64,000 nucleotides of DNA from Escherichia phage BF17. This document shows, one piece after another, positions 19,133 to 35,805 of the stretch; the stretch's first letter is position 1, and each line of letters begins with the position of its first letter. Below the pieces are notes generated by a model. It saw only the letters and a program-made list of their open reading frames with translations, ran no database searches and had not been told where the DNA came from. The stretch lies in sequence record MW822008.1; one strand, written 5' to 3'. The position numbers and the translations under genes are program-made.

Positions 19133-19628
19133 TACTAATATCTGGTTAGATAACATAATCAAGACATTAGAATTAATTAAACTTACATTACAAAAAACTA
19201 CTGATATTGAAATTAATATTAAACAAGAAATATTAAACTATTATCATAGAAACAAATATAGCACGTTTATCTCTAAATTAATTTATGGATTATATGATAT
19301 TGAAGATATTTGCATCGGTTACAGTACTGGTATTTGCTTCACAGTTAATGGTTTAAAAAATGATTTAAATTTCAGACTTTCCGATGAAGAGCAAGATTTT
19401 CGTAGATTTTGTGATAATATTATGGATACAGATAAAATTACATTTGTTATTGAATTAAATCAAACGTGGTCTACATATGCAGATAAACCATTTGAAATTA
19501 ATGAAACAGATGTGTTAAACTATATTCGAGTTATGAAAATTCATGATTTGTGTAAAAACGCATTGTTAAGTATTGGAGCTTATAATGAAACATACGACTT
19601 GGTTGAAGATAGCAGAAGTAGTTGCTGA
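19104..19628 (+). CDS. hypothetical protein (very AT-rich)
   Basis: 174-aa ORF overlapping upstream gene by 29 nt. Confidence 0.45.
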   Translation: MKYTHLSIDDTNIWLDNIIKTLELIKLTLQKTTDIEINIKQEILNYYHRNKYSTFISKLIYGLYDIEDICIGYSTGICFTVNGLKNDLNFRLSDEEQDFRRFCDNIMDTDKITFVIELNQTWSTYADKPFEINETDVLNYIRVMKIHDLCKNALLSIGAYNETYDLVEDSRSSC

Positions 19629-20064
19629 GGAAAGTAAATGTATTTCACAAAAAGTTGGTTGTGTTATTGTTAAAAATAACCGAGTATTGAGTACTGGATA
19701 CAATGGTACTCCATCAAAACAACCAAATTGTTGTGATGTGAATCAACACTTAGTCAATGATGGACGTTTTCAAGACTGGGTTAGTGATGAAGCAAAGCAT
19801 GAACATCATGAGTGGAGTAATATTCATGAAATCCATGCTGAAATGAACGCTTTACTCTATAGTTCTCCTACTGAACGTCAAGGTGCTACTCTTTACACAA
19901 CACTACAACCATGTTATACTTGTTCTAAGTTGATCGCAGGTAGTGGAATTTCACGTGTAATTTATCTCAAAAATTATCCTCGTACACCACCAGAAGCTAT
20001 TAAAGTACTGGAAGATGCTGGAATTATTGTTAATTGCATTTATGATAAGGGTCTTGATAAATGA
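19585..20064 (+). CDS. cd: dCMP deaminase
   Basis: HAEMNAL and PCYTCSK zinc-binding motifs of the cytidine/dCMP deaminase family; size fits T4 Cd. Confidence 0.85.
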   Translation: MKHTTWLKIAEVVAEESKCISQKVGCVIVKNNRVLSTGYNGTPSKQPNCCDVNQHLVNDGRFQDWVSDEAKHEHHEWSNIHEIHAEMNALLYSSPTERQGATLYTTLQPCYTCSKLIAGSGISRVIYLKNYPRTPPEAIKVLEDAGIIVNCIYDKGLDK

Positions 20065-28215: not shown

Positions 28216-28397
28216 ATGGGTTATCATATAAAGAAGCAGGTAAAGATGGTGTCAAAGGTGAAGCTGTAGATCTTTGCATTTGTGCACTTGACATGTTCGC
28301 TTTGTAATGCGATAATATGAGTTCAGAAGAGATGGAACGTGAGTTCCTTACTTACATGAATGTTAAACTAGCCAAATGGCGTAAATCAATTCAATAG
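28216..28397 (+). pseudogene. decayed partial duplicate of 3' end of gene 27539..28189
   Basis: Two short reading frames split by a stop encode ...AVDLCICALDMFAL and MSSEEMEREFLTYMNVKLAKWRKSIQ, resembling upstream C-terminus ...DISVQMALKAMELF...SAEEVEREFITRVQIALFQSKK. Confidence 0.4.
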
Positions 28398-28406
28398 GTA
28401 TTTTAA

Positions 28407-29378
28407 ATGAAAACTAAAATTATTTCTGAACAAAAAATTGGCAATACTACAGTACTGAATCTTGAAGTTCAAGGTCTTAGTAATGTTCGTTCTCTTACGG
28501 TTTGTACTCAGAGAGATGATTTGACTGATTTCTATAGCTCAGAATACATGTCAGAAGAACCTTGGGATATGGGATGGTTGGACGGTAGTAGTTATATCAG
28601 TTCACGTTATAGTTTTGGTTCTCATGAAAATATTGAACAATTAAAAAATGAGTATATTAAACTCAGTGATACTATTGAAATGAAAGAAGAAGATTGTGTA
28701 GAACTTTTCATTTTTGAATTCGATGCCGGAAATGGTAATTCATTACTAGTAAGTAATATTGAAGAACATTTAATGTATCATGAAATTGAAGATGTAGATT
28801 TTGAAAGTATTAAAAATGTTGTTCATATGGTTGGTGGTAGTATTACTGATGATTCAGATATCGGTCATAATATTTCACTGTGCTTAATTTCTCATCCAAA
28901 AACTCGTGGTTTTAAAGTTCCACAAGATGAAACTTACGTGTCTGAAACTGCTGATGAAGGAATTTATCCTTGGAATGATTATGTAGAATACTATGGTCAT
29001 TTCTGTTCTGATACAAAAGAACTGAAAAAAGGCGAACAATATTTTGATATGTTCCGTGCTGCACAGCGTTTAGTACTGAATAATACTGAACTATTTCCTG
29101 ATCGCGGCGAAGAAAATATGATTGATATTATCTTCAAGAACTATGATTATGTACAGAACATTCCTGATAATGTACATTTGGAATATGTTCACAGTTCTTC
29201 AAACAAATTCTATAATATTGAATTGAATGCTCCAGTGTGTGAAGTAATTATTGAGTACGGTGCTATTGGTAAAACCAGTACTACTGATGGTGAAGAATTC
29301 GAAACTATTGAAGAAGCACGTAAGTTCTTCGAGAAGAAAGTAATTTCCAAAATTAAAAGTGGTTATAGCCCAAAATGA
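28407..29378 (+). CDS. hypothetical acidic protein
   Basis: 323-aa ORF. Confidence 0.55.
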   Translation: MKTKIISEQKIGNTTVLNLEVQGLSNVRSLTVCTQRDDLTDFYSSEYMSEEPWDMGWLDGSSYISSRYSFGSHENIEQLKNEYIKLSDTIEMKEEDCVELFIFEFDAGNGNSLLVSNIEEHLMYHEIEDVDFESIKNVVHMVGGSITDDSDIGHNISLCLISHPKTRGFKVPQDETYVSETADEGIYPWNDYVEYYGHFCSDTKELKKGEQYFDMFRAAQRLVLNNTELFPDRGEENMIDIIFKNYDYVQNIPDNVHLEYVHSSSNKFYNIELNAPVCEVIIEYGAIGKTSTTDGEEFETIEEARKFFEKKVISKIKSGYSPK

Positions 29379-29767: not shown

Positions 29768-30001
29768 ATGAAAAATATATTCATTACATTAACAATATTT
29801 GTATCCATTATTCTCTGTGGTTGTGCTCCTAAAGTTGATGAGATGGATGCTGAAATCATCCGTCAAGGTTTAACAAAACTAAATCACCAAGGAACACTAT
29901 ACGCATGTCATACTATGCGTCATGGGCAAGATCTTAATCTCATGTGCAGGAAGATTGTGAATCGCAAACGTCTTAATACTGTTCCGAAGGATGCACAATG
30001 A
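29768..30001 (+). CDS. putative lipoprotein
   Basis: Signal peptide ending in lipobox-like ILCGC. Confidence 0.5.
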   Translation: MKNIFITLTIFVSIILCGCAPKVDEMDAEIIRQGLTKLNHQGTLYACHTMRHGQDLNLMCRKIVNRKRLNTVPKDAQ

Positions 30002-30168
30002 AAGAAGTAATTGACTACAAATGTAAAAATTGTGGCAAAGATAAGGGTAAGCATTCAGTACAAGGGATGGCTTGCCCGAATCCAGGTCGTGGTAATTTCA
30101 GCGGGTTCAGTACTGAAAAGTCTTACGAACCGGATCATACCAAACCTGTAATGGGTTATAAATTATGA
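29998..30168 (+). CDS. small Cys-containing protein
   Basis: 56-aa ORF not in track; overlaps both neighbours at start and stop (ATGA); CKNC ... C. Confidence 0.4.
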   Translation: MKEVIDYKCKNCGKDKGKHSVQGMACPNPGRGNFSGFSTEKSYEPDHTKPVMGYKL

Positions 30169-30524
30169 GTGATTATGTAGCATTTCTTCATCGCTTTGGA
30201 GAAGCTAAAGAAAAACATATTATCCGTATGCCATTATATGGTGAAAAAGACTGGTACAAAAGTACTATAAGTGTAGGTGCATTTCGTGACCGTGAAGCTG
30301 GATTCTTTCTGGGTAAGCAACATGAACGAGAGGTACTTTGCTCACTGTGGCGTTTGGATGAATGGGATAGTGAGAACGTAAGAACTGCTGAATCAATGCT
30401 GGCTATTGTTGGTATTGCGAACTATCAGCACCCATATGACCTATTACCTACATTTGAACATGCTTCTTTGTTTGATTTTTACAAAGCAGTAGGGTATGAT
30501 TATAAAAAGAAACGTTACATTTAA
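30165..30524 (+). CDS. hypothetical protein
   Basis: 119-aa ORF. Confidence 0.5.
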   Translation: MSDYVAFLHRFGEAKEKHIIRMPLYGEKDWYKSTISVGAFRDREAGFFLGKQHEREVLCSLWRLDEWDSENVRTAESMLAIVGIANYQHPYDLLPTFEHASLFDFYKAVGYDYKKKRYI

Positions 30525-30570
30525 TATCAGTACTACCACAGTGGGCAGTACTTTTTAATTGGAGATTACT

Positions 30571-31185
30571 ATGACTACATCTGAAAAGTACTGGTGGATT
30601 TTGGCTCATCCTAAATTCATAAACAAAGATATGGTTCCAGCTAGGATTGATATAGAACCTCATGATGTGTGTCCAATGACAAATCGAATTGAAGATTTCA
30701 AAGCATTGAATACAAAGACTCAATTTTGGGTAGAATTTCTTTCACCAATGTATATTGAGCAAGACGACGAATGGGTACAAGCACATGATTATCAATTGGA
30801 TTGTGGTGGTGATACGTATGAAGAGGCGATTGATAAATTATACAAAAATGTGCTAAACACATATGGTGATTACACCCAACAAGAAGCAGATAACACATTT
30901 AATAAGATCCATGCATTCAAATCTACTCCATCAATTTTTAATCCTACTAAAACTGTTTGGGAGGAACGACACAGTTGGAGTTCATGTGTAATCGATGAAG
31001 AAACCAAAGAAAAAATCATCGATGATATAAAAAATTTAAAAAATACGATAGAAGCCTTGCGTGAATTCATAATGTCTTGTACAATAGAACAACAGAAAGA
31101 GGCAAAGATACATTTGGAGAGTGAAGAATGTAAACTTTGGGTTCTAGAGAAATCTATTGAAAAGGGTATAGACTTAGACTTATGA
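30571..31185 (+). CDS. hypothetical protein
   Basis: ORF 30559..31185 trimmed to ATG after GGAG. Confidence 0.55.
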   Translation: MTTSEKYWWILAHPKFINKDMVPARIDIEPHDVCPMTNRIEDFKALNTKTQFWVEFLSPMYIEQDDEWVQAHDYQLDCGGDTYEEAIDKLYKNVLNTYGDYTQQEADNTFNKIHAFKSTPSIFNPTKTVWEERHSWSSCVIDEETKEKIIDDIKNLKNTIEALREFIMSCTIEQQKEAKIHLESEECKLWVLEKSIEKGIDLDL

Positions 31186-31550
31186 ATAGTAAATTGGAGA
31201 AACTAATCGAAGAATTACGCCAGATGCCACCTATTGAACAAGTAGGAAATTACAAACGGTATCGTGTTATTGCTCGTGCACTTGATAAAAAAGGTAGAGT
31301 ACTGGCAACTCGCACAAATTCTTATACACAGACTCACCCAGTACAGAAGGGTTTCGCCATTCGTGCTGGGCGACCGCAAGGTGAGTTTCTTCATGCTGAA
31401 ATTTCATGTTTACTGGCTGCTCGTGCTGATGTTCATACTTTACTGATTGCACGGATAAGTAAAGATGGAATTCCTGTTCCGGCTAAACCATGTGAAATTT
31501 GCTCATTAGCAATAAAAGAATATGGGGTGAAAGAGATTATCCACACATGA
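31182..31550 (+). CDS. CDA-fold zinc deaminase-like protein
   Basis: 122 aa; HAEISCL and PCEICS (H-A-E ... P-C-x-x-C) zinc-binding signature of the cytidine deaminase-like superfamily. Confidence 0.55.
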   Translation: MNSKLEKLIEELRQMPPIEQVGNYKRYRVIARALDKKGRVLATRTNSYTQTHPVQKGFAIRAGRPQGEFLHAEISCLLAARADVHTLLIARISKDGIPVPAKPCEICSLAIKEYGVKEIIHT

Positions 31551-31768
31551 AAATTGAAAGATATGCTAAGCATACTGTTGGGTGTGTAAATGATATATTC
31601 TATTATTATATTTTTGCACCTGAACTACGTTTTCAAATCACAACATACAATGATGGCAGATTTAAAGATACAAACTTCCTCATAACCGACTTAGCAAAGT
31701 ATGCGAATACAGAACATTTTAATCATTTAGTATTTGTGTACTGTATACCAAACCCAAATAAAAAGTAG
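31547..31768 (+). CDS. hypothetical protein
   Basis: ORF 31499..31768 trimmed to ATG overlapping upstream stop. Confidence 0.45.
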   Translation: MKIERYAKHTVGCVNDIFYYYIFAPELRFQITTYNDGRFKDTNFLITDLAKYANTEHFNHLVFVYCIPNPNKK

Positions 31769-31778
31769 GAGATTAAAA

Positions 31779-32138
31779 ATGGCTAAAACAATTTCTTTAA
31801 AAAATGAAAATGTAGGACAACGCAAAGATGGTTTCTTTGGTTTTTCTTGGACAACATTATTCTTTGGACCGTTCCCTGCATTGTTTCGTGGTGACTTTAT
31901 TACGTTCATCGGTGCATTCGTAATTTACTTCATCCTCAACGCAGTGTCATTTTGGATTGTGGGTACAATTGCAATGGTTGTATGGGCATTTCTTTATAAT
32001 AAGTACTACACCGTGAATCTCATCAAGAATGGGTATAAATTCAATGGCACACATGAAGAAAATGCTGAAGCTGCAATGGCTTTGCAAATTGATTTGAATA
32101 AAAACAACACAGTTGATAAAAATAAAGATCCTGAATAA
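31779..32138 (+). CDS. membrane protein
   Basis: ORF 31734..32138 trimmed to ATG after GGAG; hydrophobic helices. Confidence 0.5.
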   Translation: MAKTISLKNENVGQRKDGFFGFSWTTLFFGPFPALFRGDFITFIGAFVIYFILNAVSFWIVGTIAMVVWAFLYNKYYTVNLIKNGYKFNGTHEENAEAAMALQIDLNKNNTVDKNKDPE

Positions 32139-32357
32139 ATGGAAAAATACGATATAATTTACGATTATTATGGTAAGGCTTATATGAAGTGTGGGCGTTA
32201 TGTTGAACTCTCTAATAGAGAATCAATAGACCCCCACACTCTTATAACAATTCATAATTCGTACTATAAAAAAGTTACAATAGCTAATTTTGCAACATAC
32301 GTAAATAATCCTTTATTTCCTTACATTATTCAGTACTACTGTAGAGTTATCAAATAA
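32139..32357 (+). CDS. hypothetical protein
   Basis: 72-aa ORF. Confidence 0.45.
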   Translation: MEKYDIIYDYYGKAYMKCGRYVELSNRESIDPHTLITIHNSYYKKVTIANFATYVNNPLFPYIIQYYCRVIK

Positions 32358-32368
32358 GGTAAAAAGAA

Positions 32369-32779
32369 ATGTTAGCTGATGAATTTATGTCACTAAGTAT
32401 CAAGATATTTGATATACTAGGTGATGAAACAGATTTCAATCTAAGCGACAAAGATATTCCATTGGAAGATGGTGGATACTTTTTTGCGATTGGAACTACG
32501 TATAATCTGGATCTTTCAAAGCCTATCAGTGATGATAGTGATTATAATGCAACAACATATTTTGATTTCCAGCTTGATGGACATAAAGAGCGTTTACTAA
32601 CGTACAGACGTAAAGGTAGTTTCAATAGAACCGAGATTACAATAATGGATTTTGAAAAACGCATTGAACTAGCTAAGAAACATCCATTCATCAGTACTCA
32701 TACATTTAATAGACTAATCGATCTATTAGATAATTATCCATATACAATCCGAGGGTCGTTACGTTTAAATGCAGAATGA
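32369..32779 (+). CDS. hypothetical protein
   Basis: 136-aa ORF. Confidence 0.5.
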   Translation: MLADEFMSLSIKIFDILGDETDFNLSDKDIPLEDGGYFFAIGTTYNLDLSKPISDDSDYNATTYFDFQLDGHKERLLTYRRKGSFNRTEITIMDFEKRIELAKKHPFISTHTFNRLIDLLDNYPYTIRGSLRLNAE

Positions 32780-32954
32780 AATCTTCAAAAAAGAATACGA
32801 TGGTGAAAGTCTCTATGATATTCAAAGAGACGTACATGAAGCATTCGATTCAAGATTTAACCCATTAGCTGAACAAATCCCACAAGATGAGTTTGGTTTT
32901 CAGGAAGGCACTTTCACAGTGACTATTACATGGAGTCCAGATGAGACTAGCTAA
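32769..32954 (+). CDS. hypothetical protein
   Basis: 61-aa ORF. Confidence 0.4.
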   Translation: MQNEIFKKEYDGESLYDIQRDVHEAFDSRFNPLAEQIPQDEFGFQEGTFTVTITWSPDETS

Positions 32955-33057
32955 ACTTGTCATAGGTTGTAGTGCACTTGCTGCATATATGCTTTTTTCC
33001 GCACCAACCAATGTATTACTGTTAATTTGGGCAGTTGTTATATTAGCAGTACTTTAA

Positions 33058-33080
33058 AGCACCCTAGTGGTGCTTTTTCT
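33058..33080 (+). terminator. rho-independent terminator
   Basis: AGCACC/GGTGCT stem then TTTTT. Confidence 0.55.
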
Positions 33081-33216
33081 ATTTGTGCAAATAAAAACCA
33101 ATGTGACTTTTCCTTGATATAGGTCAAGAGAAATAACCTGTTCTGACGCTATAATGTTGTCTGGTGATATTAAATATCTTCACCCCCAGATGATTTCAAA
33201 ATACAAGGAATGTACA

Positions 33217-35022
33217 ATGCAATTAGATAAATTATATACTGACGTAACGAATTTCCTCAATCAGAGCAATACTGATCTTACCAACGAAAATGCGAACAAA
33301 GATGCGAAATGCGTCAATACACACAGGGATTTACTTGCAGGTATCCTATCTAAGCATTATTCACAAGATGTTATTCCAAATGAGCTAATGCAGTGGCATA
33401 ATGATGGTTATGGTCATATTCATGATTTAGACTACTATATCAGCCCATTAACCAACTGTTGCTTAGTTAACTACCCAGATATGCTAAAAAATGGATTTAC
33501 CATTGGTTGTGCCAAAATTGAAGAACCAAAGAGTTTTAGTGTAGCATGTACAGTACTGACACAGATTGTACAAGCTGTAGCTAGTTCCCAATACGGCGGT
33601 CAATCGTTGGCTCACATTGATGTCGGTTTAGAACCTTACGTTCAAAAGTCATGGGATAAGCTGTTAGAAAAACAAAAGAAATATAATCTAAGTGATGAGT
33701 TCATTGAAGAAGAATTACGAAAAGAAGTATACGATGGATGTCAAACATTACTTTACCAGACTAATTCAATGATTAGCACTAATGGACAAGCTGCATTCAT
33801 TTCTCTTAGTTTAGGGCTTAATACTTCTAAATTTGGTAAATTAATCACTGAACAGTACTTAAAAGTTCATGAGAATGGTTTAGGTAAAGATAAGATTACT
33901 CCAGTGTTTCCTAAAGTAATTTTCTTTTTACAAGATGGTATAAACATGAATACCAATGATAGTAATTATGACCTTAAACAGTTAGCTATGCGTTGTGCAT
34001 CAAAACGAATCTACCCAGACTTTGTTTCAGTTCCATTAAATCACAAAGTGACGGGAAGTAGTAGTACTGCTGTAACACCGATGGGATGTCGTTCATTCTT
34101 AGGAAAATGGGAAGATTCAAATGGAAATGAACAATACAACGGTCGTTTCAATTTAGGTGTGGTTTCTATCAATTTACCTCTAATTGCTCTTGAGAGTGAT
34201 TCTGATGGAGAGTTTTTTGATAAGATAGACGAGCATATGAATATTGCATATCGTGCTCAGATGAACCGTGTGGAGCGTTTAAAAGGCACTAAAGCGAAGC
34301 AGAATCCAATTTTGTTCATGGAAGGTGCATTAGCACGTTTAGGTGCAGAAGAAACCATTGACAAGCTATTTTACAATGGTTATGCTAGTATTAGTATTGG
34401 TTATGTTGGTCTTGTTGAATGTTCAGAAATCCTCACTGGTTCTATCAGTAAGGAGTTTTGTATGTCAGTACTGAATTATATGAAAGTAAAATGTGATGAG
34501 TTCAAAAAAGAAAGTAATATTGCTTTTAGTCTATATGGAACTCCAGCAGAGTCGCTTTGTTATAAATTTGCACGTTGCATTGAAGCAAAATATCCTTCAG
34601 TACTAAAACGTGATTACATCACAAATTCCTTCCATCAACCAGTATGGGTAGAAAGTTCTCCATTTGATAAATGGAGTTATGAAGAAGGGTTTGCTTACCT
34701 AAGTAACGGTGGAAACATCAGTTATGTTGAATCTCCAAACTTAGCAAACAACATTCAAGCACTTGAAACATTAGTTAACTATGCGTACACTAAGATACCA
34801 TATTTTGGTATTAACCAACCAGTTGACCATTGTTATGAATGTGGCTTCCAGGGTGAGTTCAGTGTAGATAAACATGGTTTCCACTGTCCTGTATGTGATA
34901 ATCGTAATGAGAAGACAATCTCAGTGATTCGTCGTGTTTCTGGGTACTTGGGTAATCCTTCTTCGCGTGGCTTCAATAAAGGCAAGCAACAAGAGTGTTG
35001 TGAGCGTATTCAGCACAAATAA
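33217..35022 (+). CDS. nrdD: anaerobic ribonucleoside-triphosphate reductase
   Basis: ORF 33154..35022, ATG at 33217 after AAGGA; NENANKD, TNCCLV, C-terminal zinc ribbon CYECG...CPVCDN and glycyl-radical motif RRVSGYLG match T4 NrdD. Confidence 0.9.
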   Translation: MQLDKLYTDVTNFLNQSNTDLTNENANKDAKCVNTHRDLLAGILSKHYSQDVIPNELMQWHNDGYGHIHDLDYYISPLTNCCLVNYPDMLKNGFTIGCAKIEEPKSFSVACTVLTQIVQAVASSQYGGQSLAHIDVGLEPYVQKSWDKLLEKQKKYNLSDEFIEEELRKEVYDGCQTLLYQTNSMISTNGQAAFISLSLGLNTSKFGKLITEQYLKVHENGLGKDKITPVFPKVIFFLQDGINMNTNDSNYDLKQLAMRCASKRIYPDFVSVPLNHKVTGSSSTAVTPMGCRSFLGKWEDSNGNEQYNGRFNLGVVSINLPLIALESDSDGEFFDKIDEHMNIAYRAQMNRVERLKGTKAKQNPILFMEGALARLGAEETIDKLFYNGYASISIGYVGLVECSEILTGSISKEFCMSVLNYMKVKCDEFKKESNIAFSLYGTPAESLCYKFARCIEAKYPSVLKRDYITNSFHQPVWVESSPFDKWSYEEGFAYLSNGGNISYVESPNLANNIQALETLVNYAYTKIPYFGINQPVDHCYECGFQGEFSVDKHGFHCPVCDNRNEKTISVIRRVSGYLGNPSSRGFNKGKQQECCERIQHK

Positions 35023-35030
35023 GGTAAATT

Positions 35031-35363
35031 ATGGATTTAAAGCCAATTGTGGTTAACAAATACAAAGAACCGTATGATGTGTATATTGGACGTGGGTCTA
35101 AATGGGGAAACCCATTTACCCATATTAAAGATAAACAAACCAAAGCCGAGTTCATTGTTAGTACAAGAGAAGAATCAATTGAAAAATTCAGAGAATACAT
35201 TATTGAACGTATTTCTTGTGGAGAAGTTAAGATTGATGAATTACTTGAACTCGCAGGGAAACGCCTTGGTTGTTTCTGTAAACCAAAATCATGTCACGGC
35301 GATGTTCTTGTCGAAATAGTGAGTGCAATATTAGATGAATTACCAGACGATAATCAAGGATGA
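35031..35363 (+). CDS. DUF4326-like small protein
   Basis: IGRGSKWGNPF motif common in phage proteins of unknown function (name recalled, unverified). Confidence 0.4.
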   Translation: MDLKPIVVNKYKEPYDVYIGRGSKWGNPFTHIKDKQTKAEFIVSTREESIEKFREYIIERISCGEVKIDELLELAGKRLGCFCKPKSCHGDVLVEIVSAILDELPDDNQG

Positions 35364-35805
35364 TTTAGTAAATGGAGAGGGCGTTCGCTGCTCTTTATTT
35401 GTTAGTGGGTGTTCGCACGGATGTGATGGTTGCTTCAATGAAGAAGCATGGGATTACAGAAGTGGTCAATTGTTCAGTACTGAAACAGTTGAGATTATAC
35501 TACAGGAACTAAAAAAACCATATGTTAGTGGTTTGTCACTTCTAGGCGGCGATCCATTAATGAAAAAGAATATAGATGAAGTTTTAAATCTATGCAAAGT
35601 AGTTAAAGAAACTTATCCTAGTAAAACTATTTGGTGCTGGAGTGGGTATACTTTAGATGAGATTATGAAAAATCATGCTAAAGATATACTTCAGTACTTA
35701 GATGTATTAGTTGATGGTAAGTTTATTGAGTCCGAAAAGAATTTAAAATTACCTTTCCGTGGTTCAAATAATCAAAGAATACTATATAAAAATAAAGATT
35801 TTTAG
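35335..35805 (+). CDS. nrdG: anaerobic ribonucleotide reductase activating protein (radical SAM)
   Basis: 156 aa; cysteine cluster GCSHGCDGC near N-terminus; immediately downstream of nrdD. Confidence 0.85.
   Translation: MNYQTIIKDDLVNGEGVRCSLFVSGCSHGCDGCFNEEAWDYRSGQLFSTETVEIILQELKKPYVSGLSLLGGDPLMKKNIDEVLNLCKVVKETYPSKTIWCWSGYTLDEIMKNHAKDILQYLDVLVDGKFIESEKNLKLPFRGSNNQRILYKNKDF

Follow-up and report, generated by a model that had tools for sequence, protein, structure and literature searches.

Why should a large phage that already encodes a canonical T4-type dCMP deaminase (Cd, gene cd) carry a second zinc deaminase of only 122 amino acids, and on what would this smaller enzyme act? We addressed this question in a window of 64,000 nucleotides of Escherichia phage BF17 (record MW822008.1), which is part of an Asteriusvirus-type (PBECO4/121Q-like) jumbo coliphage and holds both genes (Table 1). 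Around the small gene (window positions 30000-33200), identity is 99.8 % to phages SHEFM2K and phAPEC6 and about 92 % to 121Q. Several genomes already carry an annotation for the gene, which reads 'dCMP deaminase', 'CMP/dCMP-type deaminase domain protein' or 'TadA', and phage CBB was reported to have 'two CMP/dCMP deaminases' (PMC5259590); our literature search found no paper characterising the family or its distinct architecture. The annotation at stake is that of more than a thousand sequence clusters labelled dCMP deaminase, TadA or hypothetical.

Table 1. Position of the features discussed, in the window and in related loci
Feature	Record	Position	Strand	Basis or remark
Canonical T4-type dCMP deaminase cd, 159 aa, comparator	Window	19585..20064	+	PF00383 78 bits; PHROG_174 211 bits
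Best sigma-70-like promoter match, TTGACA-17-GATAAT with TG, 11/12	Window	28288..28316	+	Consensus match only
WGR-domain protein, 323 aa	Window	28407-29378	+	PF05406, E 1.4e-10, residues 256-322
208-aa ORF	Window	30559..31185	+	phrog_16370, E 8e-101; stop overlaps deaminase start (ATGA)
122-aa minimal deaminase gene	Window	31182..31550	+	ORF, stop codon included
Family-signature segment including N46, H52, P53, Q55	Window	31317..31346	+	Conservation counts, n=182
H71-A-E73, zinc ligand and catalytic Glu, start of helix 2	Window	31392..31400	+	Conservation in aligned family
R91 (end of strand 3) and 10-residue loop S92-A101	Window	31452..31484	+	Conservation; insertion relative to window cd by hhalign
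P103-C104-E-I-C107, two Cys zinc ligands, start of helix 3	Window	31488..31502	+	Conservation in aligned family
73-aa ORF	Window	31547..31768	+	Start overlaps deaminase stop (ATGA); no Pfam/PHROG match
Terminator-like hairpin and T-run between deaminase ORF run and nrdD	Window	33056..33076	+	
nrdD, anaerobic ribonucleoside-triphosphate reductase, 1.6 kb downstream	Window	33154..35022	+	PF13597, E 1.6e-166
DUF4326 protein between nrdD and nrdG	Window	35031-35363	+	PF14216, E 6e-24; overlaps nrdG start
nrdG activase	Window	35335..35805	+	PF13353, E 2.9e-53
Family member	Cyanophage S-SCSM1	223,330-223,716		
phiEco32-type set	L024	8111-11188		
phiEco32-type set	L026	4725-8248		
phiEco32-type set	L030	8051-12310		
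phiEco32-type set	L045	32-2733		
tRNA-repair/translation cluster	L090	1872-2906, 7051-7209, 11755-13433		
224-aa protein with GGDEF / Cas10-palm-like domain	L088	9896-10570		
Mirror-image duplication	L087	272-8436 and 11627-19619		
Small-family deaminase	L077	5998-6309		
144-aa deaminase-like ORF	L077	11066-11500		27.7 bits on family HMM

Fold, active site and selection

The 122-aa protein passes the Pfam model PF00383 (29.0 bits, gathering threshold 25) and matches PHROG_174 'dCMP deaminase' at E 3e-13. Its AlphaFold2 model (pLDDT 93, pTM 0.86) runs in the order helix 1, strands 1-2, insert helix, helix 2 (HAE), strand 3, 10-residue loop, helix 3 (PCxxC) and strand 4, the extra helix (residues 53-61) lying inside a 25-residue insert; the chain ends at T122 directly after strand 4, with neither helix 4 nor strand 5. 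The protein has the three-layer alpha/beta fold and core four-stranded sheet of the CDA superfamily, together with its zinc site (H/C-x-E on helix 2 and PCxxC on helix 3), and both motifs are invariant in the family. The ORF, the Pfam match and the modelled fold bear out the original prediction, which had placed a second CDA-fold deaminase with HAE and PCxxC motifs here. Nor did the profiles assign it to a housekeeping deaminase family: among the NCBIfam equivalogs none came near its threshold, the best being cyt_deam_tetra (TIGR01354) with 13.7 bits against a cut-off of 113.65.

The gene is under strong purifying selection. Its dN/dS is 0.03 against phage 121Q (33.5 synonymous and 4.5 non-synonymous differences) and 0.05 against RaK2, with an overall range of 0.03-0.09 among the comparisons; such low values indicate that the gene is functional and constrained. 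With its H/C/C zinc site and catalytic Glu intact, the protein is expected to deaminate its substrate hydrolytically.

Relation to the canonical deaminase cd

The window cd is 41 % identical to T-even Cd, and its sequence has GYNG, NGTP, the Cys/His insert, HAEMNA, helix 4 and strand 5. Aligned to it with hhalign, the small deaminase gave a probability of 96.6 % and 27 % identity over 92 columns, with the loop S92-A101 as an insertion; BLASTP between the two misaligned the motifs. The small deaminase is not a copy of cd, the kinship being at superfamily level only. The claim that it differs from dCMP deaminase holds both on this alignment and on the clade-defining features, which fail as described below.

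Distribution and conservation of the family

Relatives of the small deaminase were found by tblastn in 196 phage records. All Rak2-like jumbo phages carry one (RaK2, 75 % identity; Munch, 63 %; CBB and GAP32, about 56 %; Serratia BF, 54 %), as do phiKZ-like phages (PHIKZ260, 32 %), Aeromonas Plateaulakevirus-type phages and 57 Synechococcus myovirus records. When 1.84 billion cluster representatives were searched exhaustively with the profile, 4295 matched at E <=1e-3 and 1004 at E <=1e-10, which puts the size of the family at no fewer than about 1000 sequence clusters. The best 150 of these matches were all single-domain proteins of 96-166 aa. Among the matches listed in a second, indexed search, 120 further members were again single-domain, and bore the source names 'deoxycytidylate deaminase', 'TadA' or 'hypothetical'; fused domains were seen in none of the about 270 listed members. 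PF00383 was matched by 60/60 tested members.

We further scanned for two family peptide patterns, taken from a 20-sequence alignment (a 60-sequence alignment was too diverse for this use). The scan confirmed 141 loci in IMG/VR and two in the genomes of 185,579 prokaryotic species (one genome each), a contrast that reads as a trend and not as a census given its limitation to two patterns; both prokaryotic matches sit on short MAG contigs. From its sequence distribution, the family looks essentially viral, and almost only of phages.

Conservation was counted over 182 aligned members. E73, C104 and C107 are kept in all 182, H71 and P103 in 181, N46 and R91 in 179, H52 in 172, P53 in 171, Q55 in 162 and G96 in 154. 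Position 51 is T or S throughout; position 50 is K in 134 members and Q in the window protein. Further conserved positions are A59, G63, L70-H71-A72-E73, A/S101, K/R102, P103-C104-x-I106-C107 and G115. Position 121, which lies opposite a Tyr of 4p9c in profile alignments, is His in the window protein, and in the family Tyr (105 members), His (46) or Phe (18). Three marks thereby set the family apart: the motif N-S-Y-x-K-T-H-P-x-Q, an Arg that follows strand 3 and a loop of 10 residues ahead of PCxIC.

At the C-terminus, 61 of 149 representatives end after strand 4, like the window protein, and 81 have a tail of roughly 10 residues (Y-T-(T/N/D)-x-x-G followed by alternating hydrophobic residues). 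In one tailed member that we modelled (P0046, pLDDT 90.6), strand 4 (107-112), a two-residue turn and strand 5 (115-120) form a C-terminal hairpin. The family is basic: the pI exceeds 8.5 in 97 % of members (median 9.57) and reaches 9.67 in the window protein, versus 6.64 for the window cd. The conserved basic residues sit in loops predicted to surround the pocket.

Comparison with known deaminase families

The protein was checked one by one against the clade features given in PMC3239186 and PMC12088426. A single-sequence search of PDB sequences with the small deaminase returned only noise, and matches were obtained with profiles. Among solved sequences, the profiles place dCMP deaminases closest (T4 Cd, S-TIM5 dCD 4p9c, S. 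mutans ComEB 2hvv and human DCTD; E 1e-9 to 1e-5), with which the small family shares phage nucleotide-metabolism settings. Their structural-zinc Cys/His cluster is absent from the small protein, whose insert (47-70) holds one helix and no Cys; H52 alone is left of the zinc residues, and no Cys precedes strand 1. Also absent are the allosteric-site motif G(Y/W)N(A/G) (PMC12088426) and the NxxP at the end of strand 2 (PMC3239186): the small protein reads T-N46-S-Y-T there (family consensus G-x-N-S-Y), keeping the Asn of NxxP and missing the Gly-aromatic pair and the Pro at +3. The same holds for the 'NA' after HxE (HAEISC in the small protein, HAEI[AS]A in the family consensus) and for TxxxT in strand 3 (HTLLIAR). 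Helix 4 and the parallel strand 5, which define the Helix-4 division with its ring hexamer, are missing too, longer members forming the hairpin instead; we therefore predict that the small protein lacks both the hexamer and the allosteric dCTP/dTTP site. The sequence features listed are all present in the window cd. Relative to dCMP deaminases, the small protein adds the 10-residue loop before PCxxC with its invariant Arg.

The tetrameric cytidine deaminases (3dmo and B. subtilis 1ux1) usually have CAE and PCxxCR, whereas the small family has HAE, with S, Q or E at position 108, and a strand2-helix2 region 14 residues longer; the clade is described by C[H]AE (H being the minority form), PCxxCR, a strand 5 antiparallel to strand 4 and a terminal Glu (PMC3239186). 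The hairpin of strands 4 and 5 finds a likeness in the 81 tailed relatives, but the window protein has no strand 5, and the profile match to B. subtilis CDA is very weak (E 0.0076).

PBCV-1 bi-DCD and the 5-methyl-dCTP deaminase of phage XP-12 are viral DCTD variants with altered phosphate-level specificity. Both of them, like vertebrate CDADC1, have the full DCTD architecture (helix 4, strand 5 and oligomer contacts), unlike the small family, and profile similarity to bi-DCD (7fh4) is weak (E 2.5e-4).

As for TadA/Tad2, the hallmark EPCxMC and the two extra C-terminal helices (PMC3239186) are absent: the motif of the small protein is KPCEIC, nothing follows strand 4, and a long strand2-helix2 insert replaces the short loop of TadA. 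These motif tests weaken a TadA identity, as does the absence of A34 tRNAs in cyanophage S-SCSM1 (see below).

MafB19-like toxins (PF14437) agree with the small protein in N46, HAE and G115. They differ in the end of strand 3 (A-R and not V) and in the +xxCxxC motif, the basic residue of the small protein standing at -2 from the first Cys and not at -3. The PF14437 model gave 12.3 bits (cut-off 27) and is non-discriminating, because it scores the ordinary cd at 57.5 bits. MafB19-like domains sit C-terminally in secreted toxins that have an immunity gene next to their own, whereas the small deaminase stands alone. The anti-phage dCTP deaminase defence is host-encoded and involves a kinase-like fusion, the small family being phage-encoded and single-domain. 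PADLOC (E up to 0.01) returned no match for the small deaminase, while the canonical cd matched the dCTPase model PDLC02373 at 3.7e-26. With no such match, no immunity or secretion neighbours and no fusions, we set aside a toxin or defence reading.

The description that fits the family best is that of a distinct minimal clade, restricted to viruses, with a dCMP-deaminase-like catalytic core and a cytidine-deaminase-like or truncated C-terminus, and it shows how far the deaminase fold can shrink.

Genomic context

In the window, the deaminase gene lies within a run of co-directional small ORFs, with a sigma-70-like site before the run and a hairpin after it; the total of sigma-70-like matches in the region does not exceed the shuffled expectation (30 vs 35.3). 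Pfam and PHROG assigned no function to its immediate neighbours, and the window has no tRNA genes. The 208-aa ORF directly upstream, which is translationally coupled to the deaminase, holds this place in all three Rak2-like locus groups. Outside Rak2-like phages it does not adjoin the deaminase, and it may be a partner particular to that lineage. The 73-aa ORF downstream belongs to a cluster confined to the 121Q/RaK2 locus group and is no general partner; its presence in this one group rules it out as a 'missing' strand 5 supplied in trans.

The first ORF of the same run encodes the WGR-domain protein, the N-terminal 250 residues of which have no Pfam or PHROGs match; the WGR domain is characteristic of PARP-like and polyphosphate-related proteins and uncommon in the early region of a phage. 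Further downstream, a DUF4326 protein is encoded between the two reductase genes.

To compare loci, 80 IMG/VR loci and several phage and genome loci were arranged by deaminase identity into 29 locus groups. No partner gene is common to more than 5 of the 29. Recurrent neighbours are the class I/II reductase large subunit (4 groups), its small subunit (3), glutaredoxin (4) and NrdD (3, Rak2-like), and a Pfam census of 148 larger neighbours included DNA polymerase A (4), gp32 (3) and DnaB (3). In phiKZ, S-SCSM1, Aeromonas phage 4L372D and three metagenomic contigs, the surroundings are mostly unannotated small ORFs. No toxin-immunity pair, secretion apparatus or defence system was seen among the neighbours in the examined groups. 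PHIKZ260 has its own primary transcription start site in an early-infection transcriptome map (PMC8244752).

All 29 locus groups are AT-rich (31-48 % GC, median 38 %), and the window has 32-35 % GC. Cyanophage S-SCSM1 (228.8 kb, 36.8 % GC) has an annotated thymidylate synthase and nrdA/nrdB. A six-frame scan for the motifs, tblastn searches with two canonical Cd sequences and the family HMM together show that it encodes exactly one zinc deaminase, the family member. A34 occurs in none of its nine tRNAs.

Substrate and physiological role

The analyses above show that the small deaminase has the deaminase fold and an intact catalytic site, evolves under purifying selection and belongs to a distinct, essentially viral clade, and they show its genomic context; its substrate, absence of regulation and physiological role are what we infer in this section. 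We favour, with a probability of about 0.5, an active stand-alone zinc deaminase of free cytosine nucleotides (dCMP and/or dCDP/dCTP) that feeds thymidylate synthesis without regulation. Zinc held by H71, C104 and C107 would activate a water molecule and E73 would shuttle the proton, so that the C of the nucleotide becomes U. The resulting nucleotide would enter the phage thymidylate synthase pathway and yield more dTTP for a genome of 33-34 % GC in a host of 51 % GC. The small deaminase would work without dCTP/dTTP feedback beside the regulated T4-type Cd, because it has neither the G(Y/W)N(A/G) motif nor helix 4 nor the hexamer contacts; freedom from feedback could in turn explain why phages with a regulated Cd retain it.

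This reading is the best supported one on the strength of the reductase and replication context, the AT-rich carriers, the S-SCSM1 case and the pocket. In DCTD-type enzymes, the elements lining the pyrimidine/sugar pocket include the Asn that closes strand 2, the backbone of HAE, PC and, beyond strand 4, an aromatic residue (PMC12088426); the first three are retained here, and position 121 is aromatic or His in the family. In dCMP deaminases, the insert forms a cap that admits only soluble nucleotides (PMC3239186), and the small family has a conserved insert at the place of this cap. Additionally, both nearest structural neighbours act on cytosine nucleosides or nucleotides.

Several observations count against it. 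Rak2-like phages already have a canonical Cd, which would make a simple dCMP deaminase redundant, and most sequence features of the dCMP-deaminase clade fail. The reductase association is modest, many contexts being uninformative arrays of small ORFs, and the promoter-like and terminator-like sites suggest that the deaminase gene is not co-transcribed with nrdD. The basic pI of the family, compared with that of cd, suits a polyphosphate or nucleic acid ligand better than dCMP. In CDADC1 and the XP-12 enzyme, basic enrichment accompanies triphosphate substrates (PMC12088426), and dCTP or dCDP is as plausible a substrate of the small deaminase as dCMP.

The basic character would equally suit a nucleic acid ligand. 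A deaminase editing C (or A) in RNA, tRNA or ssDNA of the phage or the host comes first among the alternatives, and we hold it to be unlikely: nucleic acid would be held by its very basic surface, and the pocket would be left open by the loss of C-terminal elements, but it has none of the TadA hallmarks, and its long conserved strand2-helix2 insert is similar to the cap seen in enzymes of free nucleotides. Moreover, none of the about 270 listed members has an RNA- or DNA-binding fusion, the closest solved sequences are dCMP deaminases, the window holds no tRNA genes, and A34 is found in none of the nine S-SCSM1 tRNAs (0/9). We regard as distinctly unlikely a broader proposal, by which the family would comprise the smallest natural nucleic-acid or immune-signal deaminases (~100-122 aa, highly basic, virus-only), editing C/A in RNA/ssDNA or destroying a cytosine signalling or antiviral nucleotide as an early move of counter-defence; this would explain its retention by phages with a regulated dCMP deaminase. 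Should the substrate prove to be a polymer or a signalling nucleotide, no known natural deaminases would be more compact than these, which would be of relevance to phage-host conflict and to base-editor engineering.

Another small molecule, i.e. a modified or signalling nucleotide, a purine or a pterin, could also be deaminated, in counter-defence or in a special pathway and not for bulk dTTP. Candidates include 5-methyl- and 5-hydroxymethyl-dC nucleotides, immune signals of the cyclic CMP type and nucleotide-analogue antivirals. We consider this improbable, since no conserved partner gene points to such a pathway, PADLOC shows no relation, our literature search found no anti-defence paper naming the family, and the cytosine-type pocket residues are kept. 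Quite improbable is a role in pyrimidine salvage, in which the protein would deaminate cytidine or deoxycytidine as nucleosides, like a small tetrameric CDA in reduced form: it has neither PCxxCR nor the CAE usual there, its TIGR01354 score is far below the cut-off, the B. subtilis CDA match is very weak, and many conserved basic residues would be needless for an uncharged nucleoside. Finally, a catalytically dead or decaying remnant with a structural or binding role only, as a chain stopping after strand 4 in the smallest form of the fold might suggest, is scarcely credible when all zinc and catalytic residues are invariant, dN/dS is so low, the model is confident and the same truncation recurs in 61 of 149 representatives as a stable form.

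With respect to the roles first proposed for the gene, an ordinary one in the nucleotide pool is thus the most likely, and the suggestions of a toxin, of editing or of immune evasion are not supported by context, in the form of toxin, immunity or secretion neighbours, PADLOC matches or fusions; a polyanionic substrate is possible. If the free-cytosine-nucleotide reading is true, many large AT-rich phages (Rak2-like, phiKZ-like and cyanomyoviruses) would own a stripped-down, feedback-free route from dC to dU nucleotides, a simple override of host pool control that would also explain the uncommented 'second dCMP deaminase' of genome papers.

Additional observations at related loci

A phiEco32-type amidoligase/amidotransferase set (COOH-NH2 ligase, Amidoligase_2 and class I and II glutamine amidotransferases) was present in the Pfam census with 3 occurrences each, and lies a few kb from the small deaminase in 3-5 unrelated viral locus groups. 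On one metagenomic phage contig (L090), the deaminase is found among an RNA ligase, a ribosome modulation factor homologue, a CCA-adding enzyme (PolyA_pol + HD) and a PTH2 peptidyl-tRNA hydrolase, and on another locus (L088) the GGDEF / Cas10-palm-like protein is encoded 1.5 kb downstream of the family member. The record of Aeromonas phage 4L372D (L087) begins, at its left end, with an annotated mirror-image duplication of ~8 kb, in which one series of small genes runs first on the + strand and is repeated on the - strand; the record holds here either a large inverted repeat or an error of assembly. Lastly, an unrelated environmental phage contig (L077) carries a small-family deaminase and, 5 kb apart, the 144-aa deaminase-like ORF, which scores only 27.7 bits on the family HMM, so phages other than the Rak2-like ones may also combine two different deaminases.
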